Assembly (NCBI GenBank): GCA_017427285.1
Contig: JAFRTE010000046.1
Location: 7,401 to 71,400 of the forward strand
DNA: 64,000 bases
Reading direction: 5' to 3'
Source of the DNA: Clostridia bacterium
GTDB taxonomy: Bacteria; Bacillota; Clostridia; Oscillospirales; UBA644
Shown one piece after another: positions 1,491 to 42,124 of the stretch. Below the pieces are notes generated by a model. It saw only the letters and a list, made by a program, of their open reading frames with translations, was not told where the DNA came from and made no database searches. Position 1 is the first letter of the stretch. Every line of letters begins with the position of its first letter. The translations under genes were made by a program, and so were the position numbers.

Positions 1491-1519
1491 TTGACAATCA
1501 TCTTTGCATATGATATAAT
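1491..1519 (+). promoter_or_regulatory. sigma-A type promoter of lipoprotein paralog P1
   Basis: TTGACA (1491-1496), 17-nt spacer, TGaTATAAT (extended -10; TATAAT at 1514-1519). Confidence 0.75.
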
Positions 1520-1560
1520 CATAAAAACAAAGAAAAATGACAGACAAGGGAGGAAAAAAT

Positions 1561-2967
1561 GTGAAAAACATTCTGAAACTGTCCGTACTGCTGCTCGTTT
1601 TTGTGCTGATATGCTCATCGTGCAGTCAGGAGGCGCCGGAGATAATACCGGAATATGAGATAAGTCTGAACGGAATGAATCTTGACGGACTTACCGTAAA
1701 CTGGGGCTTTTCGATGGATCGTTACCACGATAACGTAGACAATGTTTTCGGGTTTATTCCCGGGACCGCTTTTGCTGACCAGGTGGCTGATCGGAAAAAA
1801 CAGGTGGAAAACGACCTTAACTGTAAGATCAACGTTGACAATAATTCCAACTCATACATTATCAACGACAGACTTAATGCATCGATCGTTTCCGGATCGC
1901 GGCTTTACGATATCACTACGTCGGACTCCAGCTTACTCAGAGGCATGGTGAGAGCGGGCGGATATCTTACTGGTCTTTCCTCTCTTCTCGACGTTCAAAA
2001 TACCGATAAATGGGGCCCTCCCAATATGCTTTATATGCTGCTTTGGAAGGACGATTTATACGGAGTCGTTCCCTTCGCATGGCCCGAACTGCTTTATTCG
2101 ACGACCGGTCATGTGATCGCCGTTAACGAAACGCTTGTTTCGCAGCTTGCGCAGACCGATCCGCGCGAATTTGTTGAAAACGGCAGCTGGACGTGGGATA
2201 AATTTGAAGAAGTCCTTCACGCATACACTTATCAGGATTCAGGCAGAACTATCTACGGCATGCTTACGCACCATGCGTATTTCGCAATGAATATGTTCCT
2301 TTCAAACGGCGTGGCGTTCTCGTCTTTTGAAGACGGAAACGTGGTCTGCGGTATTTATACCGAGCCGGGCAGAGTTGCGCTTGAACGCGCAAAGTCTATA
2401 CACAACGATACCTGTAAGGACTGTTTTTACCCCGAAGACACGACAAGCAACGAATATTTCCAGAACGGCGATTCGGTTATGGTCGTAGTTTCTCACGGCG
2501 GACTGATAAGCACCTCGGAATCGCTTATGTATAAAATGGATAATATCGGTATCCTGCCGTTCCCGATCGGCCCGAACGCAACGCCGGGCGTATACCGTTC
2601 ATATTACGAGCAGATCGCATTTTCAACGGTAATACCGGTAAATACCTCCGACGCGCAGGCGGCGGCTATCGTGCTTTCCGCAATGTTCGAACCTTTCCCT
2701 GGGCTCGAAACGAAAGCCGACATCGCCGAATACCTTGCAACACAGACATTCTTTGATATCCGCGACGCCGAGGTGTTTATAAACACGATCACAAATACGG
2801 AATACGGCTTTTTCTGGGAGGGCGGAAGAGGCGCGATAGAAACTTCCATCAATGCCAACACTCCCGTTTCACAGATTCTTGAAGCTCAGCAAAATACTTA
2901 CGACCAGCTCGTTGAAGACTATCTTGTCAATCACTATGCCGGCAGAGTAGCCGTCTACGGAGAATAA
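1561..2967 (+). CDS. SBP-like lipoprotein paralog P1 (distant family-1 extracellular solute-binding protein fold, no transporter partner)
   Basis: The long ORF is 1537-2967. The GTG at 1561 sits 8 nt after AAGGGAGG, while the ATG at 1537 has no SD. Signal peptide KNILKLSVLLLVFVLICSSCSQ. Family motifs: EIIPEY after the Cys, YGVVPFAWPEL, DPREFVENGSWTWDKFEE, GILPFPIGPNATPG, EYGFFWEGGR, C-terminal AVYGE. Confidence 0.85.
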   Translation: MKNILKLSVLLLVFVLICSSCSQEAPEIIPEYEISLNGMNLDGLTVNWGFSMDRYHDNVDNVFGFIPGTAFADQVADRKKQVENDLNCKINVDNNSNSYIINDRLNASIVSGSRLYDITTSDSSLLRGMVRAGGYLTGLSSLLDVQNTDKWGPPNMLYMLLWKDDLYGVVPFAWPELLYSTTGHVIAVNETLVSQLAQTDPREFVENGSWTWDKFEEVLHAYTYQDSGRTIYGMLTHHAYFAMNMFLSNGVAFSSFEDGNVVCGIYTEPGRVALERAKSIHNDTCKDCFYPEDTTSNEYFQNGDSVMVVVSHGGLISTSESLMYKMDNIGILPFPIGPNATPGVYRSYYEQIAFSTVIPVNTSDAQAAAIVLSAMFEPFPGLETKADIAEYLATQTFFDIRDAEVFINTITNTEYGFFWEGGRGAIETSINANTPVSQILEAQQNTYDQLVEDYLVNHYAGRVAVYGE

Positions 2968-2980
2968 TAAATAACTATAT

Positions 2981-3012
2981 CGCCCCGACGCATTGTGCTC
3001 GGGGCGGTTTTA
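2981..3012 (+). terminator. rho-independent terminator after P1
   Basis: Stem CGCCCCGA / TCGGGGCG with a 10-nt loop, followed by GTTTTA. Confidence 0.7.
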
Positions 3013-3064
3013 TGCCGTCGGCATGTTGACACTGAGCGGTTTTTCGCATATTTTCTTACCGATA

Positions 3065-3093
3065 TTGACAAATAACCGTTGTTTTGTTATAAT
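3065..3093 (+). promoter_or_regulatory. sigma-A type promoter of paralog P2
   Basis: TTGACA (3065-3070), 17-nt spacer, TGtTATAAT (TATAAT at 3088-3093). It lies inside the track ORF that starts at 3079, so that start is rejected. Confidence 0.75.
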
Positions 3094-3129
3094 TTAATCA
3101 AAATACAAATTGAAGCGGGGGATATTGCA

Positions 3130-4509
3130 ATGAAACTGTTTGTAAGAGTATCTGTTATTATTCTTGCGGCATTTTTGGTTTTGTGTTCGTGCGGTCGGGA
3201 GGGTGATGAAATTATCCCGGAATTCGACGCCGCAGCAGGGGATCCACTCAATTATAACGGAATGGAAATAACCTTTCTCAGCGATACGCCGCTTTATTTC
3301 CGTTATGAAGATTACACCCCGTCTTACGACGCGATCACGAAGAGGATAAAAGAGGTCGAAAAGAAATATAACTGCAAAATAACGTATAATTCAACCGGTT
3401 CGCTCGAACTTCTCGTCACGTCCGCCGCCGCAAGCGGAGATAAGCTATGCGACGCCATTTTTATGGACGGTAAGCCGTTTCGAAATCTTTCAGTCGCCGG
3501 ATATCTTCTCGATTTTGCCGCGTATTCCGATATTATAGATATAAACGACTCTTTCAGATGGGGTACGAAAAACGTGCTTGAGATCTGTTCGGCAAACGGC
3601 CGTCTTTACGGCGTAACTCCAGCCGCATGGGTTGATAAGCTCGCGCCTTACTATTTTCTTGTTGTTACAAATAACGATATCGTTATGAGAAACGGATTTT
3701 CCCATCCGCACGAATATTATGAAAACGGATCGTGGAACAGAGACGTTTTTGCCGAAATGGTAAGCACTTGCGCCGATCTTGAAAAAAATATCTACGGCAT
3801 AGATACGTCAAACGCGTTTATCGGCCGTATGGCGGTTTATTCGGACGGTATCGGGCTTGTTGACGATTCTTCCGAAACGCCGCGTTCAACATGGCACAGC
3901 TCAATTGTTCAGGACGATTTGCAGTGGGCTGCCGATTTCATAGCGGCAAACGGCGATTATATTACTCAAAACGGCGAAAGCTACGATAAATTCATTGAAG
4001 GCAGCGCCGCGATGGCTCTTCCCGCAATTCACCATTTTTGCAGAAAAATCATTTATACAACAGCCATGGAAAGCTATTCTTTAATGCCGTTTCCGTGCAG
4101 CGACGCCGTTGAAGCGGGCACCTGCGGCGGCTTTTTCTCAACGGGTCTCGATACGATCTCTCTACCCGCGTTTACAACAAACGAAAGAGAGACCGCAACC
4201 GTAATAAACGATATCTTCGCTCCGATGGACGGCATAGATACCGCAGACGCTCTTGATTCATACTATATTTCCAATGTTTTCTTCAGCTCCACCGACCTGG
4301 AAATATATCAGAAATGCATGTCGAACACAAGATACAATTATTGGGTCGAAGGAGCTTTCACGCCCCTTGAAAATATAATAAACAACGTAATAAGCGGCAA
4401 ATATACTCCGTCCCAGGCAATAGACGCATATATAGAGACCGCGGACGAATACATAATAAACGTTATCGTCCCGAACGAGGAGGGGCTTAAAGAGTACTTC
4501 GCAAACTGA
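3130..4509 (+). CDS. SBP-like lipoprotein paralog P2 (divergent subfamily)
   Basis: ATG at 3130 follows GCGGGGGA. Signal peptide MKLFVRVSVIILAAFLVLCSCGRE, then EIIPEF. Shares YGVTPAAW, HPHEYYENGSWNRDVF and LMPFPC with the family. Confidence 0.8.
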   Translation: MKLFVRVSVIILAAFLVLCSCGREGDEIIPEFDAAAGDPLNYNGMEITFLSDTPLYFRYEDYTPSYDAITKRIKEVEKKYNCKITYNSTGSLELLVTSAAASGDKLCDAIFMDGKPFRNLSVAGYLLDFAAYSDIIDINDSFRWGTKNVLEICSANGRLYGVTPAAWVDKLAPYYFLVVTNNDIVMRNGFSHPHEYYENGSWNRDVFAEMVSTCADLEKNIYGIDTSNAFIGRMAVYSDGIGLVDDSSETPRSTWHSSIVQDDLQWAADFIAANGDYITQNGESYDKFIEGSAAMALPAIHHFCRKIIYTTAMESYSLMPFPCSDAVEAGTCGGFFSTGLDTISLPAFTTNERETATVINDIFAPMDGIDTADALDSYYISNVFFSSTDLEIYQKCMSNTRYNYWVEGAFTPLENIINNVISGKYTPSQAIDAYIETADEYIINVIVPNEEGLKEYFAN

Positions 4510-4524
4510 AAACCGAAGACAAAA

Positions 4525-4547
4525 ACCCGTGATTTCCACGGGTTTTT
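4525..4547. terminator. bidirectional terminator
   Basis: Stem ACCCGTG / CACGGGT, loop ATTTC, with an A-run before and TTTTT after. Confidence 0.7.
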
Positions 4548-4564
4548 GATGCTTTTATTATCGT

Positions 4565-4765
4565 TTATTTGAATTCCTCCAGCACCTGGCTGAGCAGCAG
4601 GGGATCGTCCGTCATAATGCAGTCAACGCCCATTTTTATTAGTGTTCGCATATCGTCCGCGTCGTTTATCGTCCAGTACTGAACGGCGATGTTTCTTCGG
4701 TGAGCGCGGTCAACAATGCTTTTGCTTACAAGCGGGAGCTCAATGCCCACGTCATACGACATGGG
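4565..4765 (-). pseudogene. glycerophosphodiester phosphodiesterase (GDPD) 3' fragment
   Basis: Only the C-terminal roughly 65 aa look genuine: SIVDRAHRRNIAVQYWTINDADDMRTLIKMGVDCIMTDDPLLL, the classic GDPD C-terminus. The rest of the 153-aa ORF is antisense to the GNAT fragment and shows no GDPD features. Confidence 0.6.
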
Positions 4766-5131
4766 TATCTGCAGACACGCAAAATCGCCGACGGGCTGAT
4801 CCTGAAGATTAACGAGCAGACTCAACATAACGAGCTTGATATCCTGTTCGTGTCGCCGGACGTTCACAGCAAGGGCGTCGGCACCGCCGCATGGCGGGAG
4901 GTAGAGCGCCTTTACCCCGATACCGTAGTTTGGGAGACCTGCACGCCGTATTTCGAGAAGCGGAATATCCACTTCTACGTCAACAAACTCGGCTTTCACA
5001 TTGTCGAATTCTTCTGCGAATACCACCGCGATCCGCTCGAAAACGAGCGCTACGGCCCGCAGGATGACGAATATCCCGAAGACGACGAAGGTCCCGACGA
5101 GATGTTCAGATTTGTAAAATATATGAAATAA
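4700..5131 (+). pseudogene. GNAT acetyltransferase, N-terminally truncated fragment
   Basis: Motif A region ILFVSPDVHSKGVGTAAW and C-terminal TPYFEKRNIHFYVNKLGFHIVEFF are present. Only about 47 aa precede motif A, and the first 20-25 codons are antisense to the GDPD remnant. No SD at 4700. Confidence 0.55.
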
Positions 5132-5145
5132 GTCCCTATGTACCG

Positions 5146-5169
5146 GAGCAGGTTTTCCTGCTCATTTTT
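5146..5169 (+). terminator. rho-independent terminator
   Basis: Stem GAGCAGG / CCTGCTC, loop TTTT, followed by ATTTTTG. Confidence 0.7.
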
Positions 5170-5362
5170 GATTATTCTCATTCTTCAGTTTCTTCTCCGT
5201 CGTCACCATAGCGGACCTTGAGCGGCTCGCAGGAGATTTATTCCGCCTAAACGCCCTGACGGGTGTCCTCCGAAAAGCGTATCAGCGATTCTTGAGTTTC
5301 CTCTGAATAAAACTGTCACTGCAGAAATGCTTTTATATTTCGGTATTTTTTCGCGCTTACTA

Positions 5363-5391
5363 TTGACAAACCGTTATGGATTATGTATAAT
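5363..5391 (+). promoter_or_regulatory. sigma-A type promoter of paralog P3
   Basis: TTGACA (5363-5368), 17-nt spacer, TATAAT (5386-5391). It overlaps the track ORF start at 5383, which is therefore rejected. Confidence 0.75.
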
Positions 5392-5421
5392 ATGGAAAAT
5401 TTATTCAAAAAGGAGCGAAAC

Positions 5422-6810
5422 ATGAAATATTTCAAGCTGACGGCTGTAACCCTGTTATTTGCGGTTCTTTTAATATCGTGCGGAGTTTCCTCCGAGATCG
5501 TTCCGGAATACGATGTAACGTCCGACACTACGGATTTTTACGGGACAACATTCAACTGGGGTTTCTCTATGCACCGCTATGCAAGCAGCACCGATAATGT
5601 TTTCGGATATAAGCCGGATACCAATTTTGCAGATATGGCTCTTGAAAGGCTGAAAGATGTCGAGAAAAGATTCAACTGCACTATTAATATCGACAATAAT
5701 TCAAGTTCATATGTAATCGGCGACAGGCTCAATGTTTCGCTGAAAACAGGCGTTCACCTGTATGATATCGCAACCTGTGACACAGGTATTCTGTCATCAA
5801 TTGTCAGAGCAGGCGGCTATCTCGCAGGTCTTTCAAATTTGCTTGATGTTAAGAATACCGCAAAATTCGGAAGACCTAACATGCTTCAGATGATGCTCTG
5901 GAAAGACGATCTTTATGGCGTTGTTCCCTGCGCATGGCCGCTGCTTGTTTCTTCAAGAATAGGACATGTTCTTGCGATCAATGAAACCCTGGTTGCCAGA
6001 CTGGGAGAGACCGACCCCAGAGAATATGTTGAAAATTCTACATGGACCTGGGATAAATTTGAAGAGGTCCTCGAGGCTTTCACATATAAAGAAGGTGAAA
6101 GAACAGTCTATGGACTGAGCAGCCATGATGCTTATTTCGCCATGAACATGTTCCTTTCCAACGGCGTAACTTTTTCGGAATACGTAGACGGAAAAGTCGT
6201 TTTCGGCGCATATACGGACGCGGGAAGAGAAGCACTTGAGCGCGCTGCGTCTATATACAATGTCACCTGCAAGCCCTTTATCTATCCCGACGCCAGCACC
6301 ACAGACCATTTCAGGGACGGCTCGTCGGTAATGTGCGGCTACTTTTTAGACGGAGTCATAAACACGCTCATGTATGAAATGGAAAACGCAGGCATAATTC
6401 CTTTCCCCCAGGGACCGAAGGCGACCCCCGGCGTATATCCCACATATTATGAGGAATTCACTTATGCTACCGTAATACCCGCCAACGCAATCGACACAAG
6501 CGCTTCCGCAGCAATCATAGACGCAATGTTTGAGCCGTTTAAAGGATTGGAAACCAGGGACGATATGATTGATTATTTAACATCTCAGGTGTTCTTTGAT
6601 CCCAGAGACTCGGCGGTATTTCTCGGAGCAGTCGAATATACCGAGTACGGATTTTTCTGGGAAGGCGGACGCAGCGGCATAGAGCAATGCATAAGAACAT
6701 TAAAACCCGTTTCCGAAGCCCTTGAAGGACTTGAAAATGTTTACGATAAACTTGTTGAGGAATATCTGGTTCCTCATTACAACGGAAGGATTGCTGTTTA
6801 CGGTGAATAA
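5422..6810 (+). CDS. SBP-like lipoprotein paralog P3 (same subfamily as P1)
   Basis: ATG at 5422 follows AAAAAGGAGCG. Signal peptide MKYFKLTAVTLLFAVLLISCG, then EIVPEY. Collinear with P1 along its whole length, with identical blocks such as LWKDDLYGVVP, TWTWDKFEEVL, AYFAMNMFLSNGV and TEYGFFWEGGR. Confidence 0.85.
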   Translation: MKYFKLTAVTLLFAVLLISCGVSSEIVPEYDVTSDTTDFYGTTFNWGFSMHRYASSTDNVFGYKPDTNFADMALERLKDVEKRFNCTINIDNNSSSYVIGDRLNVSLKTGVHLYDIATCDTGILSSIVRAGGYLAGLSNLLDVKNTAKFGRPNMLQMMLWKDDLYGVVPCAWPLLVSSRIGHVLAINETLVARLGETDPREYVENSTWTWDKFEEVLEAFTYKEGERTVYGLSSHDAYFAMNMFLSNGVTFSEYVDGKVVFGAYTDAGREALERAASIYNVTCKPFIYPDASTTDHFRDGSSVMCGYFLDGVINTLMYEMENAGIIPFPQGPKATPGVYPTYYEEFTYATVIPANAIDTSASAAIIDAMFEPFKGLETRDDMIDYLTSQVFFDPRDSAVFLGAVEYTEYGFFWEGGRSGIEQCIRTLKPVSEALEGLENVYDKLVEEYLVPHYNGRIAVYGE

Positions 6811-6893
6811 CGGCATTTGCCTAAACAAAAACAGACTGAAGTATGCATTTGTATCGGAAAATGATTTAAGGAGTATTGCCGTTTATAACAATT

Positions 6894-7493
6894 ATGGAAA
6901 TTTTAGCGTGGGTATTCGGAATAGCCAGCATAATAGCTAATTTTATACTTTATCAGCAGAAAGAACGAAAAAGACTTCTTATCTCAAAGATGATAGTTGA
7001 CACACTGTCGATAGTGCATTACAGCTGCCTCGGCGCCTGGAGCGGGGCAGCGATATGCCTTGTTGCTGTTTTCAGAACTTTCGTATTTATGCATGAGGAC
7101 AAAAAATGGGCAGGCGGAAAGAAGTGGCTGCTTGTTTTTCTTGCAATGAATATCATACTCGCTTTCTTTACATGGAAAAACATTTTCAGTATTTTTCCGC
7201 TCATCGCTACTGCCGGCGCGATTTTCAGCTTCTGGCAAAATAACACGAAGCTTACAAAAATACTTGTCTATCCGATATCGGGATGCATGATAACATATGA
7301 CATCCCCAGCGGGTCTTATACCGGACTTGTTAACGAGACGTTCGCCATCGTCTCTGCAACCATCAGCCTTATTTCGATGCATAAGAGCAGAAAGAACAGC
7401 GAGATCTCCGCGGAAAGCGGAAACGAGCAAACGGATGAAACAGAAACGTTAAATGAAAAACAGGTAACAGAGGACTCCGCCGGGAGTTTATGA
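6894..7493 (+). CDS. YgjV-like inner membrane protein
   Basis: Five or six hydrophobic helices and a sequence pattern reminiscent of the Imp-YgjV family. The start is ambiguous: TTG at 6876 is 2 nt after AAGGAG, ATG at 6894 is 20 nt after it. Confidence 0.5.
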   Translation: MEILAWVFGIASIIANFILYQQKERKRLLISKMIVDTLSIVHYSCLGAWSGAAICLVAVFRTFVFMHEDKKWAGGKKWLLVFLAMNIILAFFTWKNIFSIFPLIATAGAIFSFWQNNTKLTKILVYPISGCMITYDIPSGSYTGLVNETFAIVSATISLISMHKSRKNSEISAESGNEQTDETETLNEKQVTEDSAGSL

Positions 7494-7611
7494 AAGAATC
7501 ATGGAAAAGAACAGCAGAGTATTGTGATGAAAAGTCCTCACAACCTGTTGCCTTCATATTTCGCAATCAGCGTAATGCGTGATTCATATTGATTTTAAGA
7601 GGAGTAATAGT

Positions 7612-8937: not shown

Positions 8938-9076
8938 TGCTTCTGAATAGTCTGAATATGCAGAATTTCAGGTAAAGCTGCAGTATTGAAATAACAATGC
9001 GGATTTCATTCATTTAACGGAAAGCCGGGAATGATAAACATTTTTTCGCCGGGAGTATTACGGTAAAACATAAAGT

Positions 9077-9105
9077 ACGGGAATGAGCGAACTGCTCATT
9101 CCCGT
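9077..9105. terminator. strong hairpin, probable terminator between convergent genes
   Basis: 12-bp perfect stem ACGGGAATGAGC / GCTCATTCCCGT, loop GAACT, followed by GTTTA. Confidence 0.6.
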
Positions 9106-9213
9106 GTTTAATTATTGAAAGTCCTGCCTGATTGATATTTGCAAATACGCATGCTTTTCATCTGTTTCATATCCCGGTTATTCGTCAGTCATATTATCTC
9201 ATTTCGGGCAGCG

Positions 9214-10191: not shown

Positions 10192-10348
10192 TGTAAAACC
10201 ACCGTATCTTATTTTTTTTACATTATACTGTTTTTTTTACGCGTTGTCAAGATAATATTCGGAGTTGTCTTCTCTTTACTCTATTGAAAATATTCAGACA
10301 ATATGCTATAATGAGCCGTATATTTAAAATGCGCGAAGGAGAATAAAG

Positions 10349-14472: not shown

Positions 14473-15156
14473 TCATTTCTTATTAATGGTGATCAGTTTG
14501 TAGCAGATCGCCGCAAGAATACCGCCTGCGAGCGGAGCTACGATGAATACCCAGAGATTTGCAAGAGCGTCGCCGCCTGCAAGAAGAGCGGGACCGAAAG
14601 AACGCGCGGGGTTAACGGATGTTCTGGTAAGTCCTATGCCGAGGATATGAACGAGCACAAGCGTAAGGCCTATTACTATGCCTGCAACGCTGCCGTTTTC
14701 AACTTTGCTTATAACGCCGAGAATTGCGAGAACGAAAACGAATGTCAGAAGGACTTCGATTATCAGCGACGCTATAACGTTGCCGCCCGCAAGACCGTTC
14801 GAACCGAGAGCGCCTGTTTTGTCTTCAAGTCCGGCAAGAGCAAAGATACCTTTGAGGATCGCCGCGCCTGCTGTCGCGCCCGCAAACTGCGCTACGATAT
14901 AAATAAAGAATTCCGATACCGTCATTTTGCCCGATATCAGCATGGCGATCGATACAGCGGGGTTTATGTGGCAGCCCGAAACGTTTCCTATCGAATACGC
15001 CATCGCAACGATTACAAGACCGAACGCAAACGCAGTGAGAATATATCCGCTGCCGTTTACGGCGTCACATCCAACCGTCATTGCGGTTCCGCAGCCGATA
15101 AAAACCAAAACGCATGTGCCTATAAATTCCGCTATCGCTTTTTTCAGTTTTTCCAT
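14473..15156 (-). CDS. aqpZ: aquaporin (MIP family channel)
   Basis: Two NPA boxes (HINPAVS and SVNPARS), six hydrophobic helices, 227 aa. Confidence 0.9.
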   Translation of the reverse strand: MEKLKKAIAEFIGTCVLVFIGCGTAMTVGCDAVNGSGYILTAFAFGLVIVAMAYSIGNVSGCHINPAVSIAMLISGKMTVSEFFIYIVAQFAGATAGAAILKGIFALAGLEDKTGALGSNGLAGGNVIASLIIEVLLTFVFVLAILGVISKVENGSVAGIVIGLTLVLVHILGIGLTRTSVNPARSFGPALLAGGDALANLWVFIVAPLAGGILAAICYKLITINKK

Positions 15157-20867: not shown

Positions 20868-21018
20868 AACCTGCGGACTGCCCGCAACGGACAGTCTGTA
20901 TCCGTTTTTCTTCTTGACAAACATCGTTAAATTATGTATAATAACTATATGAAATTGTCTTGACAATTATGTCTCTCCATAATATAATAATAAAAAAGGA
21001 TTCTCGGGAGAAATGTAA

Positions 21019-25827: not shown

Positions 25828-26781
25828 ATGAAATTTACAAAACTTTTCATCCTGATCTTGGTTTTGGCTATGGCCATTTCCTTTGTTACCTCATGCACCG
25901 ACGCCCCTTCGGGAGGAAACGAACCGGAAGACAAGCCCGAAACTTCGCAGTCTCAGCAGGAACCGAGTGAAAACAACACCGAAGAAACCGAAAAGCCCGA
26001 TGAAACCGAAACCCCCGAGACATCGTCGCCTTCAGGCGCGGCTACAGTTGAATCCCACGTTATATTCGAAGACAGTGGCATAAAAATTACCGTAAAAGAG
26101 CTTGATATGGACGCTTTTTTCGGACCCGAGCTCAAATTCCTTATCGAAAACGACACGGAAGAAGATGTTGAAGTCACTGTTAACAGTGTTTCCGTAAACG
26201 GATACGCTATCTCTTCATATCTCTTTACCGACGTTTCCGCCGGCAAGAAGGCAAACGATTACATTTCTTTATCCGAGTCCGACCTTGAAGAGCGAGGCAT
26301 TTCCGTTATCGCAGATATAGAGCTCGATTTTATCGTTTATAAAAACGACTCGTGGGATCTTATCTGCCAAAGCGATATGATCCGCATCGAAACTTCCGCC
26401 GCTGACGGTTTTGTTTATACTTACGACGAATCCGGCGTTGAAGCATACAACGATAACGGAGTTTTGATCGTCACAAAAGGCATTGACGAAGACGAATTTC
26501 TCGGCGAATCCGTCGTTGTGTATATTTACAATAAAAACGACGCCGCAGTCACCGTAAGCGCGCGCAACGTTTCCGTTAACGGTTTTATGCTTGACCCGAT
26601 CTTTTCCGTTTCTGTCCCCGCCGGCAAACATGCGCTTCAGAAGCTCTATTTCTTCGACAGCGACCTTGAAGAAAACGAGATCGAACATCTCGATGACGTT
26701 GAGATCACCTTTTATATTTACTATACCGACACATGGGACGATATCGCATATTCCGATCCGGTCCATGTTACGAGAAACTGA
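25828..26781 (+). CDS. lipoprotein with an acidic P/E/T-rich linker and an internally duplicated domain
   Basis: Lipobox ISFVTSCTD, about 50 aa of PE/T-rich linker, then two similar modules (VTVNSVSVNGYAIS...SESDLEERGI...IELDFIVY..DSWD and VTVSARNVSVNGFMLD...FDSDLEENEI...VEITFYIYYTDTWD). Confidence 0.6.
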   Translation: MKFTKLFILILVLAMAISFVTSCTDAPSGGNEPEDKPETSQSQQEPSENNTEETEKPDETETPETSSPSGAATVESHVIFEDSGIKITVKELDMDAFFGPELKFLIENDTEEDVEVTVNSVSVNGYAISSYLFTDVSAGKKANDYISLSESDLEERGISVIADIELDFIVYKNDSWDLICQSDMIRIETSAADGFVYTYDESGVEAYNDNGVLIVTKGIDEDEFLGESVVVYIYNKNDAAVTVSARNVSVNGFMLDPIFSVSVPAGKHALQKLYFFDSDLEENEIEHLDDVEITFYIYYTDTWDDIAYSDPVHVTRN

Positions 26782-26870: not shown

Positions 26871-26900
26871 TTGACATTTCACCGTTATTTAGGTTATAAT
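26871..26900 (+). promoter_or_regulatory. sigma-A type promoter of paralog P4
   Basis: TTGACA (26871-26876), 18-nt spacer, TATAAT (26895-26900). Confidence 0.7.
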
Positions 26901-28580: not shown

Positions 28581-29378
28581 TTAATGTCCTCGCTTGTCAA
28601 GAAGGGCAATCGCTTTGTCAAGAAAAGCTTTCCACAGCGTTTTGACCGGCTTGTTATTACCGAAAAGCGCAACGAGCTTCGGGCTTACCGCATAATAGAT
28701 CTTAATAAACGCTTTTCCCAAAATATGCTTTTTCAGAAAACCGTCGCGAAACCGTCTCAGCGTCATGACCGGCGCGCAGTCATACGAACCGTAAACGCAT
28801 GTGGCTATATAGCACCCTTCGGAGCTGTTGTTTGTATTGTTCTCGGAATTATCCGCAGAAACGGTTTTGCTCGTCGCGGCGTTATGGTTTAGCTCGTATG
28901 CCCGCTCGATAAGCTGCGATTTTTTTTCCGTTTCCTTTTCACCTGCACCGCAGCGGGTATTTCCTCCGTATAGATCGGGCGTTGACGAATCTGTTTTGCT
29001 GCTTTCTCTTCCGTAAGAGGTATATCCGTCAAAGAAAACCGGAGAGCTGCTATCGTTTTTGCCTTGCTCACCGTAGTGAGTATAGCCTCCGAATATACCG
29101 GGGGTCGTCGAACCGGTTTTTCTTCCGTCTTTGTCGTAATTGATATACTCGCCGAAAAAGCCCGGGGAACTGCTTCCCGTTTTCTTTCCGCTTGCGTCGT
29201 AGTGCGTATACCCTCCGAAAAAACCGGGGCTTGACGAACCTGTTTTTTTGCCGTTTTTGTCGTAAGTGGTATATCCTCCGAAAATGCCGGGTGAGCTGTA
29301 TCCCGTTTTCTTTCCGTTTTCGTCGTAATGCGTATTTCCGCCGAAAATATTCGGTTCGCTGCGTCCTTTTTTCGCCAT
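28581..29378 (-). CDS. YD-like tandem-repeat protein with a Cys-rich C-terminal CYIATCVYGSYDC...LRRFRD domain
   Basis: 265 aa with no signal peptide. About 6.5 copies of a 21-aa unit (xFGGYTHYDxxGKKTGSSSPG). C-terminal GCYIATCVYGSYDCAPVMTLRRFRDGFL...YYAVSPKL resembles the widespread CFIATAAYGS...LRxFRD type domain. SD TAGGAGCA. The start is 33 nt after the P5 stop. Confidence 0.75.
   Translation of the reverse strand: MAKKGRSEPNIFGGNTHYDENGKKTGYSSPGIFGGYTTYDKNGKKTGSSSPGFFGGYTHYDASGKKTGSSSPGFFGEYINYDKDGRKTGSTTPGIFGGYTHYGEQGKNDSSSPVFFDGYTSYGRESSKTDSSTPDLYGGNTRCGAGEKETEKKSQLIERAYELNHNAATSKTVSADNSENNTNNSSEGCYIATCVYGSYDCAPVMTLRRFRDGFLKKHILGKAFIKIYYAVSPKLVALFGNNKPVKTLWKAFLDKAIALLDKRGH
28941..29348 (-). 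repeat. 63-bp (21-codon) coding tandem repeat, about 6.5 copies
   Basis: The repeat units are read directly from the translation (aa 11-146). They degenerate toward the C-terminal side. Confidence 0.85.
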
Positions 29379-32240: not shown

Positions 32241-32390
32241 TTCTTACTGCCTCCCGTTTATTTCGCTTTATATATTAAAATATATCATATTTTTCATATT
32301 ATGTCAACCACAAAATGATATTTAAGGTTGACTTTTTGCTGCGAAAAGAGTATAATACAACGGGAAATAATTAAAAAGGAGATCGATTTT

Positions 32391-33371: not shown

Positions 33372-33465
33372 TGGTAAAATCGCGATTTCGATTGCGGAAG
33401 TAAATATCACAAAATCCCCGGAACAATCAGTCCCGAGGATTTTTTTCCGTATTGTGTAATTTGCG

Positions 33466-33786: not shown

Positions 33787-33788
33787 GA

Positions 33789-35177: not shown

Positions 35178-35374
35178 GAAAATCTCCTCGCTTTTTTTAT
35201 ATCGGATGTAATAACTGTTCTGCTGTATATGTATACAGATACTTTCCATATTTTACTATATATTTCGCGATATGTCAATAGGAAAATTCATTTTTTGTGA
35301 ATATTATTGACATTTTATCAAATCAGGTGTAAAATAGTACATAATAATCAAATGAATCGGAGAGAAAAAACAAT

Positions 35375-35788
35375 ATGAGATTCAAACATACAAACCGTCC
35401 GGGATTCTTGCTCGGATTCATCGATTTTTTTACGGCGGGGCTGTTTTTTCTTCTGTATATGCCGTTCGGCGGACTTCAGAAAGAGCTCGAATATATTCTC
35501 GGGCATAAAGTCCGACCCTACTGGAAGGCATATCTGCTCGGAATACCTACGCTGTTTATCTATACGCTCGTATGGATGGCGAATATTGCCGAAGAGCTGA
35601 AAACAAAGGCGGAGGAAATGCATCTTGAAGGTCCGCATACTTCGTGGAAACATATGTTCTGGTGGAATATGCTCGGATGTCTCTGCTTCGGGCCCATGAT
35701 AGCCACTCGCCGCTTTTTTTGCACATTAAACAAAACGGAATCCGAGCTTAACTTACAAGGCGAACGGAAAAACCGTTTTGCCGAATAA
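35375..35788 (+). CDS. DUF4234-like small membrane protein
   Basis: Two or three TM segments. The FIDFFTAGLFFLLYM region resembles the DUF4234 TxGIYxLxW core. TTGACA-N17-TAAAAT promoter upstream. Confidence 0.45.
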   Translation: MRFKHTNRPGFLLGFIDFFTAGLFFLLYMPFGGLQKELEYILGHKVRPYWKAYLLGIPTLFIYTLVWMANIAEELKTKAEEMHLEGPHTSWKHMFWWNMLGCLCFGPMIATRRFFCTLNKTESELNLQGERKNRFAE

Positions 35789-35885
35789 AAATCGAAATTA
35801 ATACTTTACAAGAGCCGAGAAAAATGGTATACTGTATAAAATAACGTTCTTCACTCGATCTGAAAAACGTCAAAAGGAGAAAAAT

Positions 35886-38057
35886 ATGTCGGTAAATTAC
35901 AATAACGAAACAAAGACATTCACGCTTACAGGCAAAAATCTCTGCTACGCTTTCTGGATAAACGATCTCGGATATCCCGAACATCTTTATTTCGGCGCTC
36001 CGATAGGTTCGGACGATCTGCGCTTCACCCGTGCTTTCGGCGCAACTTCTATGGCAGCGACCCCTCCTGGGATAGACAACGTTCCCTCGTATAACGCTTA
36101 TCCATCCGAGCTTTCGTTTTTCGGTACGGGAGATTACCGCGAACCCGCAGTCCAGGTCGTAAATCCTTCAGGAGACCGCCTTTGCGAACTTCTTTTCGAC
36201 TCTTATGAGGTCGTTTCGCTCAAACCGAAAATATCCGGAATGCCTTCTCTTGACGGCGGCGAAACGCTTATAATCCATCTTAAAGACCGACTAAACCGTT
36301 TTGCGGCGGATTTATACTATACCGTCTACGACGACTGCTCTGTTATAGCTAGAAGAGCAGTTTATAAAAATCTCGGCGCGTCGGAAATAAGACTTGAAAG
36401 AGCATATTCTTTTTCTCTCGCTCTGCCTGACCGCAGCTACGAAATGCTCTCGCTTTACGGCGTATGGGCAAAGGAACGTCATATCGACCGTATTCCTCTT
36501 CATCACGGCGTAGTTTCGATAGACTCGAAACGCACGACCTCTTCCGCAACGCTTAACCCGTTTATGGCATTGCTCCGCCCAGATACTTCGGAAAGCCACG
36601 GAGAAGCAATTGGCGTAAATCTCGTTTACAGTTCGTCTTACGTCCTTAAGGCCGAAGTCAATCCCGACGGCACAACGCAGCTGACGGGAGGAATTAACGA
36701 TTTTGATTTCAACTGGAAACTTGCTCCGGGCGAAGAATTCGAAACGCCCGAAGCGGTTATCGCATATTCCGACGAGGGCATCGGAGGCATGAGCCGCGCT
36801 TTTCACGACGCTTACCGCGAACACCTTATCAATAAACGCTTCGTAAAATCGCCTCGTCCGCTGCTTATAAACAACTGGGAGGCAACGTATTTCAACTTTG
36901 ACGTTCCCAAGCTCTGCGCCATTGCCGACGCAGTAAACGGACTCGGTATAGACACCCTTGTCCTTGACGATGGCTGGTTCGGCAAACGAGACAACGATAC
37001 TTCGGGGCTCGGCGACTGGGTCGTAAATACCGAAAAACTTCACGGAGGGCTTAAAGCCATTATCGACCACGTCCACTCTCTCGGTATGAAGTTCGGTCTA
37101 TGGTTCGAGCCGGAGATGGTCAGCGAAGATTCCGACCTTTTCCGCGCGCATCCCGACTGGACAATCGGCGTTCCTGACAGAAAACGCTGCTACAGCCGTC
37201 ATCAGTTCGTGCTTGATCTAACGAGAAAAGACGTCCGCGACCATATCGTTAAGGCGGTAAGCGACATTATAGAAAACAATGAGATAGACTATGTTAAATG
37301 GGATTACAACCGCAACGTTACCGAGTCGTGGTCATACTGCCTCGAAGCGGAAAGACAGATGGAATTTGCCCATCGCTACGCTCTCGGTTTTTATGATATC
37401 TGCGAACGTATAGTAAACGGACATCCCGACGTCTTTTTTGAGGGCTGCTCGGGCGGCGGCGCAAGATTTGACCCTGCAGTACTGTATTATTTCCCGCAGA
37501 TATGGACAAGCGACGACTCAGACGCCGAGGAAAGGACAAAAATTCAGTACGGCACATCAGTTGTCTATCCGCTTTCGTCCATGTCGTGCCACGTTTCCGT
37601 ATGTCCCAATCATCAGACGAACCATACAACACCGTTTGAAACGCGCGCGATCATAGCGCATCTCGGCGCAACCGGCTATGAGCTTGACTCAACGAGATTT
37701 ACAGAAGAAGAAAAAGCCGCGGTAAAACGTCAGACAGAGGCATACAAAAAATCGGAGGATCTCGTTTTGACGGGCGATCTTTACCGTATAGACAGTCCGT
37801 TTGAAACGGAATTCTTTACCGAAGCGATAGTTGCAAAGGATAAATCAAAAGCGGAGCTTATCTGCTACCGCAGATTTTCATCAATCAATAACGAAATCAA
37901 GCGCGTAAAAATGGCGGGACTTGACCCGCAGGCGACATATCGCCTCGAAGAAAAAGGCATTGTTGCAAAGGGTTCAACGTTTATGAACGTCGGTTTTGCG
38001 CCCGATTTTCCGCGCCATGATTTCTATGCTTTAAAATACCATTTTACAGAGATCTGA
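35886..38057 (+). CDS. alpha-galactosidase (GH36)
   Basis: LINNWEATYFNFD, VLDDGWFGKRDNDTSGLGDW, KWDYNR, CSGGGARFD. 723 aa. Confidence 0.95.
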   Translation: MSVNYNNETKTFTLTGKNLCYAFWINDLGYPEHLYFGAPIGSDDLRFTRAFGATSMAATPPGIDNVPSYNAYPSELSFFGTGDYREPAVQVVNPSGDRLCELLFDSYEVVSLKPKISGMPSLDGGETLIIHLKDRLNRFAADLYYTVYDDCSVIARRAVYKNLGASEIRLERAYSFSLALPDRSYEMLSLYGVWAKERHIDRIPLHHGVVSIDSKRTTSSATLNPFMALLRPDTSESHGEAIGVNLVYSSSYVLKAEVNPDGTTQLTGGINDFDFNWKLAPGEEFETPEAVIAYSDEGIGGMSRAFHDAYREHLINKRFVKSPRPLLINNWEATYFNFDVPKLCAIADAVNGLGIDTLVLDDGWFGKRDNDTSGLGDWVVNTEKLHGGLKAIIDHVHSLGMKFGLWFEPEMVSEDSDLFRAHPDWTIGVPDRKRCYSRHQFVLDLTRKDVRDHIVKAVSDIIENNEIDYVKWDYNRNVTESWSYCLEAERQMEFAHRYALGFYDICERIVNGHPDVFFEGCSGGGARFDPAVLYYFPQIWTSDDSDAEERTKIQYGTSVVYPLSSMSCHVSVCPNHQTNHTTPFETRAIIAHLGATGYELDSTRFTEEEKAAVKRQTEAYKKSEDLVLTGDLYRIDSPFETEFFTEAIVAKDKSKAELICYRRFSSINNEIKRVKMAGLDPQATYRLEEKGIVAKGSTFMNVGFAPDFPRHDFYALKYHFTEI

Positions 38058-38059
38058 CT

Positions 38060-39178
38060 ATGATAGCAAACAAAGAAATACTTATCGATCTTTTCTGCCG
38101 CCTTGTATCGTGCGACAGTCCGTCTTACAACGAAAATGCGGTCAGAGACGCAGTTGTTTCGGAGCTTAACAGCCTCGGAATTGCCGTTGAAGAGGACTGC
38201 GCGGCGGAGATGATAGGCGGAAAATGCGGAAATCTTTACGCAAAAATCGACGGTGACCCGTCGCTTGAGCCGATACTTCTTTCCGCGCATCTTGATACGG
38301 TCGAACCGTCGCACGGCAAAAAGGCGGTCGTTCATCCGGACGGACTGATAACCTCCGCAAAAGACACTGTCCTCGGCGCAGACGACGCTGCGGGGCTCGC
38401 CTCGATAATTCACGCGGTAAAAAACGTTATCGAAAACGGCGTTTCACACCGTCCCGTCGAACTTGTTTTTGACGTCTGCGAGGAAAAATACTGCGTCGGC
38501 ATACAGAGATTTGACTATTCAAAGATCGATTCAAAACAGGTATATGTGCTTGACGTAGACGGCAGGGTAGGGCGCGCGGCTTTTCAGGCGCCGTCCATAG
38601 TGCAGTACAGGGCTGTTTTCAGGGGCAGAGCCGCTCATGCGGGATTTTCACCCGAGGAAGGGCTTCACGCCATAAAAACCGCAGCCGAAGCGATAAACGG
38701 CATCACCTGCGGAAGAACGGGTGATATGACTGTGAATATCGGCAGCATAAGCGGCGGTATAGCGGATAATATCGTCCCTCCCGAATGCACGGTAACGGGA
38801 GAGATACGCGGCTTTAACAATTGTGAAGTAACCGCAAAAACCGACGAGATAGGCGCGAAAATGAGATCCGTTGCCGAAAAAAACGGTCTTGGCTGCGATT
38901 TTTCGAAAACCGTAATTTGCAAAGCGTTCAAGACCGAAGAGGACAGCGAAATATGTCTGAATTACGCAAAGGCGTGTGAAAAAGCCGGAGTAAAGCCGGA
39001 GTTTATAAAAACTTACGGCGCTTCAACAAACAATCACTGGTCTGAATGGGGCTTTTGCGGCCTTGTTATAAGCTGCGGCATGAATAACTGCCATTCCGTT
39101 GAAGAATGGACAACCGCCGACGAGCTTTGCCGTTCCGCGGAGATCGTATACAATATAATTACGGACTGCAAAGGTTAA
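38060..39178 (+). CDS. M20 family metallopeptidase (PepT/tripeptidase-like)
   Basis: SAHLDTV, GADDAAG, CEE, AAHAG. The start is 2 nt after the GH36 stop. Confidence 0.8.
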   Translation: MIANKEILIDLFCRLVSCDSPSYNENAVRDAVVSELNSLGIAVEEDCAAEMIGGKCGNLYAKIDGDPSLEPILLSAHLDTVEPSHGKKAVVHPDGLITSAKDTVLGADDAAGLASIIHAVKNVIENGVSHRPVELVFDVCEEKYCVGIQRFDYSKIDSKQVYVLDVDGRVGRAAFQAPSIVQYRAVFRGRAAHAGFSPEEGLHAIKTAAEAINGITCGRTGDMTVNIGSISGGIADNIVPPECTVTGEIRGFNNCEVTAKTDEIGAKMRSVAEKNGLGCDFSKTVICKAFKTEEDSEICLNYAKACEKAGVKPEFIKTYGASTNNHWSEWGFCGLVISCGMNNCHSVEEWTTADELCRSAEIVYNIITDCKG

Positions 39179-39254
39179 AATCCTCAAGAAAAACAAAAAC
39201 CGACCCGAACAAAAACTGCCGGGTCGGTTTCTTTCTGTATTCAGTTTATATATT

Positions 39255-40658
39255 TCAGTTTTCAAACGTGCCCCAGACGGCTTCAGAGCCGCGAATGGCA
39301 GGCATTACATATTTATCGAATATCTCCGCAGCAGATTCTCTGTTGCTTTCGATGTAACTGCTTATCGATCCGTTGTAGGTGATAAATTCCTTGTATTTAG
39401 AGCCGATATTGCAGTTGTTGAAAAGATTGTCCCACGAAAGATACAATTTGTAGAAATTGTCGCAGTCACGCTCGTCAAAGAAATAATAGCGCGACATATG
39501 CTCTTTTATCTTTTCAAACGTTTCAAATCCCGTAAGTGGCTCGTAAAGCTTATCAAGTACGGTTGCCGTTGCTTCCGCATCGTGGGTAAGTACGGGGATA
39601 GTAATGCAGTTTCCGTAACCGGAAAATACCGAACAGGCAGAGCCCGGTTCGGCGTTCGGGCCGGTGGGATATATAAGCAGGGCGTAATTATTCAAACATT
39701 TCGATATATAAAAGTCTTCTTTTCCGAAAATGTATGGAGTACAGCACATTCCCGCCTCGCCTGCGTCGAATTTTTCAACGGTAGGAACAGGCAATGCGGT
39801 ATAAACCGCATAGGAAAGACTGCCTTTTAATATATCTCTTGCCTCTTCCATCGCGGCCGCCGCGGAATCGGAAGAAAAGCCGAAAACAAATTCTCCGTTT
39901 GCGTCTCTTCCAACCATACGGTCGCCGTTTGATCTTACAAACATTTCAACGTATGCGCTGTCGGTTGTTGAAAATCCGTAGATTTTCACTTCGCCGCTTT
40001 CGATTACGGTATAGTCTTCTATACATTTGCGAAACTGCGCCCAGGTCCATGCGTCAGTTTCAACGTATTCGCGCGGATCGGGCAGCGCAAGCTGAGAAAC
40101 TATATCCTCGTTTACAACGAGAGGATATCCGAACTGCGACTGCGTAAGCAGGGGCCATGATATGGGAAAAACGCCGTAAACGTCGTCCTCGTAGCATAAT
40201 GCGAAAAGATGCTTTCTGTTTCCCCATTTCTCGCTGTCGTTGTAATCGATTATCCCTCCCAGCGATTTTATTCCGGTAAGGACTCCCGCACGGATCGCTT
40301 CCGTCGCCGAATTTGTGTTTCCGCACAGGATATCGCATAAAAACGTACCGGCATAGGAAGAGGCGATAATTTCCCCGAAGCCGTATCCGCCGTAAACGAT
40401 ATCCAGCTTGCAGTTGAGCTCTTTTTCCGTTCGGTTTACGGCTTCTTTTGCAAGATCGGCAAATTCCGTGCCGATCTCGTAACCGAGAACGGTTTCGTCC
40501 GAATATGCCGTTGCATATACTACCGTTTTTCCGCCGAGATCGGTGCCTACAGAAGAAAATGCGTTGAAATCCATGTCAAAAACCTCAACGGGCGCCGAAC
40601 ATGAGCATACGGAGAGCATAATCGCGGCAATAGTCAGTAATTCTACGATCTTTTTCAT
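39255..40658 (-). CDS. SBP-like lipoprotein paralog P8 (divergent)
   Basis: MKKIVELLTIAAIMLSVCSCSA. YGVFPISWPLL, DPREYVETDAWTWAQF, LLIYPTGPNAEPG. 47 nt downstream of P9. Confidence 0.8.
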   Translation of the reverse strand: MKKIVELLTIAAIMLSVCSCSAPVEVFDMDFNAFSSVGTDLGGKTVVYATAYSDETVLGYEIGTEFADLAKEAVNRTEKELNCKLDIVYGGYGFGEIIASSYAGTFLCDILCGNTNSATEAIRAGVLTGIKSLGGIIDYNDSEKWGNRKHLFALCYEDDVYGVFPISWPLLTQSQFGYPLVVNEDIVSQLALPDPREYVETDAWTWAQFRKCIEDYTVIESGEVKIYGFSTTDSAYVEMFVRSNGDRMVGRDANGEFVFGFSSDSAAAAMEEARDILKGSLSYAVYTALPVPTVEKFDAGEAGMCCTPYIFGKEDFYISKCLNNYALLIYPTGPNAEPGSACSVFSGYGNCITIPVLTHDAEATATVLDKLYEPLTGFETFEKIKEHMSRYYFFDERDCDNFYKLYLSWDNLFNNCNIGSKYKEFITYNGSISSYIESNRESAAEIFDKYVMPAIRGSEAVWGTFEN

Positions 40659-40705
40659 AACAATCTCCCGAAATATTATAGGTTATTTGACCGTATTGCG
40701 GATTG

Positions 40706-42124
40706 TCAGCCGAAAATCTCCTCCGCAGTAGTTTCCATATTAACAACGTATTTTACTCTGTTCTGTTCGTCTGCATCCGCATATGCGTCAAGAGCTTCCC
40801 TCATCGTTCTGCTGCTGTTCATATTGATGTAAACGTCCGTACATGCTTCGTGTCTGTAATTGTAAAGTACGGTTTTATACATATCCACAAAGTTGTAAAC
40901 GTCTCTGTCGTCAAAGAAATACTGCTTTCTCAGATAATCGATAATATCTTCTTCATTTTCATATCCGGGGAGCGGTTCGTATATCGCGTTGAGCAATACT
41001 GCGGACATAGCGGGGTCTTTTGCGCAAAGAGACGGGATTGCTGTTGAAAATCTCGTTGTTGTTATCGTCGAGCCGGTGTTTGCAACGCTTCCGTTAGGAC
41101 CGTGCGGGAACGGAACTACGCCGAAATTATCCATGTTGAATACTATCGAGTTGTCTGTTCCGCAAAGGTCTGTGCCGTTCATCAGGGTGAGGACCGATTT
41201 TCCGTCAAGAAATGCCTGCAGCATATTCGTCCAGTTATTGTTCAGGTCGATATTGACGTATGTGGAATACTCGCCGAAAGTCCAGTTCCATGCAGTCTGC
41301 ATAGCTTCAAACGTGATGGGGGAGTGGAGACTGAGCTGGAACTCGCCCTTGTCGTCTTTAATAATAACGGGTTCGCCGTTTGTTGTATGCATCGTTCTGA
41401 AAAGCCAGTGGATAGTTGTCTGAAGCGCCTTTACCTCGTCGCCTGCATCGTTTATATGATTGTATATGGGCATAAGCTCTTCAAGTTTGCTCCACGTCCA
41501 CTCGTCGCGCTCAACAAACTCTCTCGGGTCTGTCTGGCTCAGACGGCTGATGATCGTTTCGTTAACAACCATTGCTCCGTCGATCGAACGGTATTTCAGC
41601 AATGGCCATGCGGCCGGAATAACGCCGAAAAGACCTCCGTCCCAGCACAGCGGTTTAAGGTCTTCCTTCGTTCCCCATTTATCCGCTTTTGTATAATCGA
41701 TAATATCACCGAGATAAGTAAAGTCGTATAAATATCCCGCTCTTGCAAGATTTGCTATCGTGCTTGATTCAGACTGAGCGGCATCGTAAAGAATAAGTCC
41801 GGCGATAGAAGAGGACGTTATCAGGTCGGAAAGTCCCTGTCCCGAAGTGTTGAGTTTTATAACAACATTGTAAGTATCCTCAACGTCCTTCAGACGTCTT
41901 GAGGCAAGATCGGCAAATTCGGTGTTTACTACGTAACCGAAGTATTCTTCGCCCGTTGAATGCTCCTCGTTTCTCTGAACAAAAACGAACTCCGCGCCGC
42001 GGTAGTCGATACCCGTGATCTCCGTTGAATAATCGGGTATTATTTCCTGCTCCGCCTGCTGTCCGCACGAACAGAGAGCAAAAACGATAAAGAATACAAT
42101 AGCCATGGAAATAATCTTTTTCAT
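40706..42124 (-). CDS. SBP-like lipoprotein paralog P9 (divergent)
   Basis: MKKIISMAIVFFIVFALCSCGQ, then EIIPDY. FGVIPAAWPLL, DPREFVERDEWTWSKLEE, FGVVPFPHGPNGS. TTGACA-N17-TATAAT promoter upstream on the minus strand. Confidence 0.8.
   Translation of the reverse strand: MKKIISMAIVFFIVFALCSCGQQAEQEIIPDYSTEITGIDYRGAEFVFVQRNEEHSTGEEYFGYVVNTEFADLASRRLKDVEDTYNVVIKLNTSGQGLSDLITSSSIAGLILYDAAQSESSTIANLARAGYLYDFTYLGDIIDYTKADKWGTKEDLKPLCWDGGLFGVIPAAWPLLKYRSIDGAMVVNETIISRLSQTDPREFVERDEWTWSKLEELMPIYNHINDAGDEVKALQTTIHWLFRTMHTTNGEPVIIKDDKGEFQLSLHSPITFEAMQTAWNWTFGEYSTYVNIDLNNNWTNMLQAFLDGKSVLTLMNGTDLCGTDNSIVFNMDNFGVVPFPHGPNGSVANTGSTITTTRFSTAIPSLCAKDPAMSAVLLNAIYEPLPGYENEEDIIDYLRKQYFFDDRDVYNFVDMYKTVLYNYRHEACTDVYINMNSSRTMREALDAYADADEQNRVKYVVNMETTAEEIFG

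Follow-up and report, generated by a model that had tools for sequence, protein, structure and literature searches.

Which transporter do nine paralogous receptor genes serve when no permease gene lies beside any of them? The solute-binding proteins (SBPs) of sugar importers of the ATP-binding cassette (ABC) type are normally encoded together with their own permeases, and this rule is used to annotate the transporters and the sugar-utilization loci of gut bacteria. The DNA analyzed here (GenBank assembly GCA_017427285.1, contig JAFRTE010000046.1, positions 7,401 to 71,400), a stretch of 64 kb referred to below as the window, lies on a scaffold of 175 kb from a ruminant gastrointestinal metagenome and carries nine genes, P1-P9, for lipoproteins that resemble such SBPs. 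An original prediction, made from the letters of the window, had described them as a lineage-specific expansion of surface-anchored ligand-capture proteins without an ABC partner. We found that P1-P9 belong to a family confined to one clade, with the predicted fold of SBPs of the CUT1 type and with no linked CUT1 permease in any of the related loci, and we propose that its members may deliver oligosaccharides to a translocator, or a small number of them, used in common and encoded elsewhere.

Predicted fold and membrane anchoring of P1-P9

Listing and translation of the open reading frames (ORFs) agreed with the nine predicted genes, whose products are 459-472 amino acids (aa) long (Table 1) and which occupy about 12.6 of the 64 kb, that is, the one fifth of the window that had been estimated. 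The start codons adopted for P1 (1561, GTG), P2 (3130), P3 (5422), P5 (30818) and P7 (35177) are not those of the longer ORFs, because the positions of the promoters and ribosome-binding sites (RBSs) support the shorter start sites. In an all-against-all BLASTP comparison all pairs aligned over approximately their full length with 24-59% identity and E values of 1e-29 or lower, P2 matching the other eight at E values from 1e-29 to 1e-46. Clustering at 40-50% identity reproduced the subfamilies that had been proposed by eye, namely P1/P3/P4/P7 and P5/P6, with P2, P8 and P9 each standing single.

Several lines of evidence place the paralogs among known sugar receptors. P1 scored above the curated Pfam gathering cut-offs (26 and 27 bits) for both SBP_bac_1 (PF01547; 37.4 bits) and SBP_bac_8 (PF13416; 34.6 bits), and P4 above that for SBP_bac_8 (30.0 bits). 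The remaining seven were weak or silent and stayed below these cut-offs, yet BLASTP shows them to be homologs of P1 and P4 (E values of 1e-29 or lower). NCBIfam gave no match. When a profile of 55 family sequences was compared with the PDB sequences, the best match was the arabino-oligosaccharide-binding protein AbnE (E = 6.6e-10), followed by YesO and other sugar SBPs. AlphaFold2 modeled P1 and P5 with a predicted local distance difference test (pLDDT) score of 91.3 and 89.8, respectively, confidently throughout except for the tether that follows the lipidated cysteine. As had been suggested as a check, the two models were submitted to Foldseek; they consist of two alpha/beta lobes joined by a hinge, as in type II periplasmic-binding proteins, and matched in the PDB exclusively maltose-binding-protein-like carbohydrate receptors of ABC importers (E about 1e-14 to 1e-16, target-normalised template modelling score 0.55-0.74). 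The top matches were GacH, TMBP, MalE3, CbpB, Lmo0181, a beta-glycoside-binding protein, AbnE and UgpB, at only 11-16% identity to the solved structures, and the model of P5 has the CUT1 SBP fold although P5 has no Pfam match. Moreover, the core blocks shared by the paralogs stand in the order seen in family-1 SBPs, as had been noticed, and correspond to the canonical CUT1 blocks (YG.P...N, P.TW.EF and PFP.GP). Since Pfam, the family profile, the AlphaFold2/Foldseek results and the core blocks concur, we regard the assignment of P1-P9 to the maltose-binding-protein-like SBP fold of CUT1 ABC importers as settled. Homologs are already annotated publicly as 'extracellular solute-binding protein'. 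From the size of the proteins and from the nearest structures, the ligands would be oligosaccharides.

All nine proteins start with a basic and hydrophobic signal peptide and a lipobox with its cysteine at residue 20 or 21, as expected for the predicted lipoproteins; the lipobox is of the CSC type in five of the nine and reads CSSC in P1. Among the full-length relatives, an automated rule detected the signal and lipobox cysteine in at least 89 of 95, and on inspection the other six show an N-terminal signal with a cysteine. Between the lipidated cysteine and the first strand lie about 20 residues that are predicted to be disordered (pLDDT below 50 in the models of P1 and P5). In this tether, five to six residues past the lipobox cysteine, six of the nine paralogs carry the motif E-(I/V/T)-(I/V)-P-(E/D)-(Y/F) that had been pointed out, and P5, P6 and P8 carry an acidic-aromatic variant of it. 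The motif is not peculiar to the window: [E/D]-hydrophobic-hydrophobic-P-[E/D]-[Y/F] occurs in 114 of 181 full-length members and the variant E-x-F-x-x-D-F in 41 more, so that both forms together cover about 86%. The tethers of outgroup SBPs are 30-50 residues long, of low complexity (T/A/E/P) and without the motif, which was found in no non-family ORF of the fetched loci. The conservation of a linear motif within a disordered tether suggests that it has a binding partner.

Absence of a transporter partner

Neither Pfam scans of the other large ORFs nor phmmer and hidden Markov model (HMM) searches with CUT1 permeases revealed an ABC permease or ATPase in the window, and regular expressions for the Walker A and LSGGQ motifs detected no ABC ATPase there. 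The claimed lack of an ABC partner holds well beyond these limits. No ABC component was present in the 8.5 kb upstream or the 10 kb downstream of the window, and none of about 190 family genes adjoins a MalF/MalG-type permease (best E = 0.23) in 501 kb of loci from metagenome-assembled genomes (MAGs) and 599 kb of metagenome loci. These related loci comprise 10 kb on either side of the family matches, the metagenome set overlapping partly with the MAG set, and they were searched with phmmer, using 49 outgroup permeases, and at maximum sensitivity with a profile of 80 outgroup permeases. As a positive control, 23 of 36 loci of the nearest conventional SBPs (the outgroup) held at least two permeases, mostly directly upstream of the SBP gene. 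Since no CUT1 permease was found across about 1.1 Mb of related loci, the orphan status is a property of the family and no accident of the way the window was cut. Cognate permeases in conserved pairs, the contrary outcome considered in the original prediction, are very unlikely.

Several candidates for a transporter were considered and rejected. An apparent operon at 44651-47858 resembles, by gene size, a binding protein with two permeases, but by their translated sequences the products are O-acetylhomoserine sulfhydrylase, cysteine synthase and serine acetyltransferase. An ABC system that lies beside a five-gene array in a related locus (L040) has BPD_transp_2 permeases and is a nucleoside importer of the Bmp type; such a system is absent beside the other arrays, and its counterpart in locus L135 comes with a Bmp binding protein of its own and is encoded on the strand opposite the array. 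ATPase-like ORFs near family genes in one syntenic set only (L013-L016) are paired with an ABC-2-type membrane protein and probably form an exporter, and the proteins with six transmembrane segments encoded directly upstream of two arrays (L007, L009) are PlsY-type acyltransferases. A Pfam census of the membrane proteins in the loci of the clade, which covered 44 of 58 representatives (most of the other 14 were scanned individually), returned MatE, FtsX, P-type ATPases, TrkH, CstA, MIP and others, with no sugar transporter class among the top 25 of 42 Pfam families. The sugar uptake systems of the clade would therefore be few and encoded elsewhere.

Distribution and maintenance of the family

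The predicted lineage-specific expansion was supported by a scan of 185,579 species genomes (one genome per species), in which the family occurred in about nine MAGs of uncultured ruminant-gut Clostridia, with many copies in each; the relatives are full-length proteins from MAGs of Clostridia, Oscillospiraceae or Ruminococcaceae. Related loci were sought with sub-alignments of the paralogs (A2, A4); the alignment of all nine lacked a sufficiently conserved stretch. The family HMM separated full-length members (about 240-680 bits) from ordinary SBPs (at most 94 bits). About 100 members are encoded in the 501 kb of MAG loci, at least 28 of them in the MAG RGIG8738, and the partly overlapping 599 kb of metagenome loci added 91 more. 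At least ten copies lie on the contig of the window, and tandem arrays in related loci reach eight genes (L007, L011). In the public protein universe, 496 clusters (50% identity) matched the profile at E values of 1e-30 or lower; among the best 150 matches the full-length proteins are about 450-500 aa long, none of them long enough for a fused extra domain.

For each of eight paralogs (all but P2) an ortholog is encoded in another MAG, with 67-94% identity as against at most 59% to any paralog of the window, which implies that the duplications are older than the divergence of these species. Identities and ratios of nonsynonymous to synonymous substitution rates (dN/dS, Nei-Gojobori) were 78% and 0.115 for P1, 67% and 0.10 for P3, 83% and 0.067 for P4, 94% and 0.057 for P5, 82% and 0.062 for P6, 93% and 0.057 for P7, 90% and 0.139 for P8, and 92% and 0.063 for P9; P2 had no close ortholog among the fetched loci. 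Given dN/dS values of 0.06-0.14, each of these copies is kept by purifying selection. Synteny also supports that the copies are maintained and functional: the order of M13 peptidase, lipoprotein and P4-like gene is kept in three other MAG loci (L019, L020, L022), and further neighbors from the window recur in these loci and in L017. Occasional pseudogenization and some turnover in the family are suggested by two split genes, one being P7 itself, which is divided into two ORFs in a population variant (L002 14142-15586, minus strand), and the other a family gene of a related MAG (L017 12918-14345, plus strand).

The superfamily to which P1-P9 belong is already known. In the literature searched, whose coverage was partial, neither this family nor orphan arrays of the CUT1 type from rumen Clostridia were described. 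Three features appear to be new, namely the expansion into arrays within a single clade, the consistent absence of permeases linked to them and the conserved tether motif.

As a separate observation, a different family of SBP_bac_1 lipoproteins (about 500 aa, tether motif FSPNIP) forms tandem arrays of three to five genes in other uncultured ruminant-gut Clostridia (L068 9734-17911 and L081 9386-14044), and here, too, a CUT1 permease is absent within 10 kb. The P1-P9 family may thus not be the only one to form orphan receptor arrays.

Promoters and transcription units

The claim that most of the paralogs have their own promoter and terminator held for the promoters, which precede seven of the nine genes (Table 1), while the evidence for terminators is weaker. 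All nine genes are preceded by an RBS. P5 starts 39 bp after P6 and P8 starts 47 bp after P9; since neither P5 nor P8 has a strong promoter of its own, P6-P5 and P9-P8 are probably co-transcribed. In the whole window 14 perfect TTGACA-N16-18-TATAAT sites were counted, as against 0.01 expected from shuffled sequences, and five of them precede family genes; others lie, for example, at 10222-10250, 20914-20942 and 44417-44445. The organism of the window uses full-consensus promoters unusually often; the family genes, accordingly, are ordinary transcription units with strong promoters.

Table 1. Genes of the P1-P9 family and their promoters. Positions refer to the window, except for the last row, which refers to locus L083; a promoter score of 12/12 denotes a perfect TTGACA-N17/18-TATAAT.
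Feature	Position	Strand	Remarks
P1	1561..2967	+	468 aa; GTG start; Cys21; EIIPEY encoded at 1639-1656
P2	3130..4509	+	459 aa; motif EIIPEF; most divergent, 24-28% identity to the others
P3	5422..6810	+	462 aa; motif EIVPEY; 57-59% identity to P1
P4	26931..28319	+	462 aa; motif EVVPEY
P5	29412..30818	-	468 aa; variant tether motif EEFLEDF
P6	30858..32240	-	460 aa; variant motif EEFLLEF; 42% identity to P5
P7	33789..35177	-	462 aa; motif ETIPEY; 57% identity to P4
P8	39255..40658	-	467 aa; variant motif EVFDMDF
P9	40706..42124	-	472 aa; motif EIIPDY
P1 promoter	1491..1519	+	sigma-70-type; 12/12 consensus
P2 promoter	3065-3093	+	12/12
P3 promoter	5363-5391	+	12/12
P4 promoter	26871-26900	+	12/12
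P6 promoter	32279-32307	-	11/12
P7 promoter	35250-35278	-	11/12
P9 promoter	42173-42201	-	12/12
Tenth family member	L083 10699-11631	-	about 10 kb beyond the end of the window; gene call of 459 aa, fetched in part

Proposed sharing of translocators and alternative explanations

The original prediction had allowed for two options, a single transporter encoded elsewhere that serves all the paralogs or a role that needs no transporter. The explanation that we favor, with a probability of roughly 0.55, is that many specialized oligosaccharide receptors feed one or few shared CUT1 translocators encoded elsewhere. Each receptor would be exported and lipid-modified at Cys20 or Cys21, and its tether of about 20 residues with the acidic-aromatic motif would hold it near the outer face of the cytoplasmic membrane. 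Every receptor would close around its own oligosaccharide and pass it to one or a few translocators of the MalFGK2 type, encoded elsewhere and common to many receptors, and the imported oligosaccharides would then be cut by the cytoplasmic glycoside hydrolases (GH10-like, GH20, GH29, GH36 and GH95) that are encoded between the receptor genes. Indeed, the interleaving of the family genes with GH10-like, GH20, GH29 and GH36 enzymes and with peptidases (C26, M13, M20) was confirmed in the window, and since these adjoining enzymes have no signal peptides, oligosaccharides must be imported. Shared translocators are the most economical explanation. Nevertheless, several points weigh against it. The shared translocator is assumed, not having been seen in the window, its flanks or the related loci, and we know of no precedent in this transporter class for at least 28 receptors per few CUT1 translocators. 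A short conserved tether motif, together with many invariant charged residues across paralogs of about 25% identity, could point to a different common partner.

The absence of CUT1 permeases near any of the family genes, a family-specific motif in a disordered tether that outgroup SBPs do not have, and the very high copy number in tandem arrays would also suit a reuse of the SBP fold without a transporter, which we consider less likely. The proteins would then hold or sequester glycans at the surface, for instance in adhesion to plant fiber or mucin or in retention against competitors, while uptake would proceed through an unrelated system and the motif would dock to a partner other than an ABC transporter. 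This explanation is opposed by the full two-lobe hinge architecture, which is kept in confident models as in transport SBPs, and by the adjoining cytoplasmic glycosidases, which need an importer. Moreover, a short tether holds the protein close to the membrane, which suits delivery to a translocator more than the reaching of insoluble substrates, and no candidate for an alternative partner is conserved beside the family genes. Somewhat more doubtful is the further idea that the fold has been turned into a diversified set for glycan capture at the surface, with no ABC translocator and with the motif docking to another membrane partner, as a Gram-positive counterpart of SusD-like proteins.

SBP-fold proteins are also known to serve as co-receptors, for example LuxP and ChvE, and P1-P9 might be ligand sensors that signal the binding of a solute through a histidine kinase, a chemoreceptor or a phosphatase; in one related locus (L020) a 5TM-LYT/SpoIIE phosphatase is encoded about 1 kb from a family gene. 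We consider this improbable, as no histidine kinase, response regulator or chemoreceptor was found in the window or as a conserved neighbor in the related loci, and dozens of sensors without an adjacent signaling partner would be unusual. That P1-P9 are SBPs of the conventional kind, with a separate permease pair for each of them somewhat further off or elsewhere in conserved pairs, could be expected from the permease-permease-SBP arrangement of the nearest outgroup SBPs but is largely refuted by zero CUT1 permeases within 10 kb on either side of about 190 family genes, none even by the eight-receptor arrays, and by the nature of the sole adjacent ABC system, the nucleoside importer described above.

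Genes around the family in the window and its flanks

Besides the glycosidases and peptidases, Pfam assigned other ORFs of the window to FeoAB, a YgjV-like protein, DUF1295, an ArsB/CitMHS transporter, enzymes of sulfur amino acids and a defense-like cluster, and an aquaporin-like protein (14473-15156) was recognized from its translated sequence alone. No recognizable regulator gene was found in the window, and Rfam and tRNA scans of it returned nothing.

Some of these genes lie directly beside members of the family. The YgjV-family protein (6876-7493, plus strand; 205 aa), an inner-membrane protein, is encoded directly downstream of P3; no other membrane protein of the window is encoded right next to a family gene, and the YgjV-family protein was not found as a recurrent neighbor elsewhere. 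Upstream of P4 lies the gene for a lipoprotein of 317 aa (25828-26781, plus strand) that has two similar domains and an acidic linker of low complexity and matches no Pfam family; it is found also just upstream of the P4 ortholog in the three syntenic MAG loci (L019, L020, L022). Directly downstream of P5 and on the same strand lies a gene for a protein of 265 aa (28581-29378, minus strand), likewise without Pfam match, which contains about five tandem repeats of about 22 aa (G-G-Y-T-H-Y-D-x-x-G-K-K-T-G-S-S-S-P-G-x-F) and a cysteine-rich C-terminal segment (CYIATCVYGSYDCAPVMTLRRFRD), and which is conserved in strain variants (L001-L003).

Further away, the defense-like cluster (51943-57312) encodes a TerB_N/TerB_C protein, a BrxC/BrxD-type ATPase and a DEAD/Helicase_C protein of 745 aa with a weak Cas3-like match at its C-terminus. 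A lipoprotein of 703 aa (58745-60856, minus strand) combines a Cthe_2159 carbohydrate-binding domain with a long region of acidic repeats and a glycine-rich C-terminal stretch; it is probably another protein that binds glycans at the surface and has no relation to the SBP family.

In the flanks, the region upstream of P1 (L004 1-9600) encodes TnpV, MZB, DEAD/ResIII helicase, SLFN_AlbA_2/Fic-like and helix-turn-helix proteins of the mobile-element and defense type, and the P1-P3 group may border an integrated element. The 10 kb downstream of the window hold a gene for a protein of 709 aa, which runs off the window and whose C-terminal part is the window ORF at 62288-63820, and the tenth family member, which adjoins genes for two GH95 fucosidase-like enzymes and serC- and serA-like genes.

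Comparison with known systems and significance

P1-P9 share with the SBPs of CUT1 importers (TC 3.A.1.1; for example MalE, Thermococcus TMBP, Geobacillus AbnE, Clostridium thermocellum CbpB and Bacillus YesO) the two-lobe type II fold, the order of the sequence blocks, the anchoring as lipoproteins that is common in Gram-positive bacteria, and a mature size of about 440 aa that is typical of oligosaccharide binders. They differ from them in their low identity to the solved structures, in that only two of the nine pass the Pfam thresholds, in the lack of linked MalF/MalG-type permease genes, in their high copy number in tandem arrays and, with regard to the outgroup, in a short tether with a conserved motif instead of a long low-complexity one. 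Gram-positive polysaccharide utilization loci likewise have glycosidase genes among the receptor genes, as found here (GH10-like, GH20, GH29 and GH36, with GH95 downstream), whereas the P1-P9 loci contain no permease, ATPase or recognizable regulator and their glycosidases are all cytoplasmic.

Receptors that lie apart from their translocator have precedents on a smaller scale. In E. coli, the orphan SBP MppA borrows the OppBCDF translocator. In Bifidobacterium the LT-SBP paralogs, orphan SBPs whose genes lie apart from those of the permeases, extend the range of substrates that one transporter can take up (PMC8110962). In these cases one to few receptors are added, whereas the P1-P9 family has at least ten members on the contig and at least 28 in one genome, and no anchor operon has been found for it. 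Closer in number are the Bug proteins of the TctC family in Bordetella and other proteobacteria, over-represented receptors that are mostly orphans without a nearby membrane component and are thought to share few promiscuous translocators; in Bordetella pertussis 76-79 of them face two TctAB sets, for a reason that is still unclear (PMC5812351). Like them, the P1-P9 family comprises numerous paralogs that lack a neighboring membrane component: the window has nine, RGIG8738 has 28 or more, and single arrays contain as many as eight. However, the Bug proteins are periplasmic receptors of Gram-negative bacteria for a secondary, tripartite tricarboxylate transporter, while P1-P9 are SBP_bac_1-type lipoproteins of Clostridia, for which the Pfam scan gave only SBP_bac_1 and SBP_bac_8 and no TctC match (PF03401). 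The resemblance is thus an analogy of genome organization and not homology.

The P1-P9 family breaks the rule that links SBPs to permeases, in that a clade of ruminant-gut Clostridia keeps dozens of receptors under purifying selection with no local permease. If the translocators are indeed shared, this would be, to our knowledge, the most extreme case of many receptors serving one transporter in the carbohydrate ABC class and a Gram-positive parallel to the unexplained Bug proteins, and genomic predictions of substrate range would have to count receptors instead of transporters. If the family acts without a transporter, it would represent a new use of the SBP fold. Since P1-P9 are small and soluble, they can be screened for ligands, which would reveal which glycans this uncultured clade harvests.

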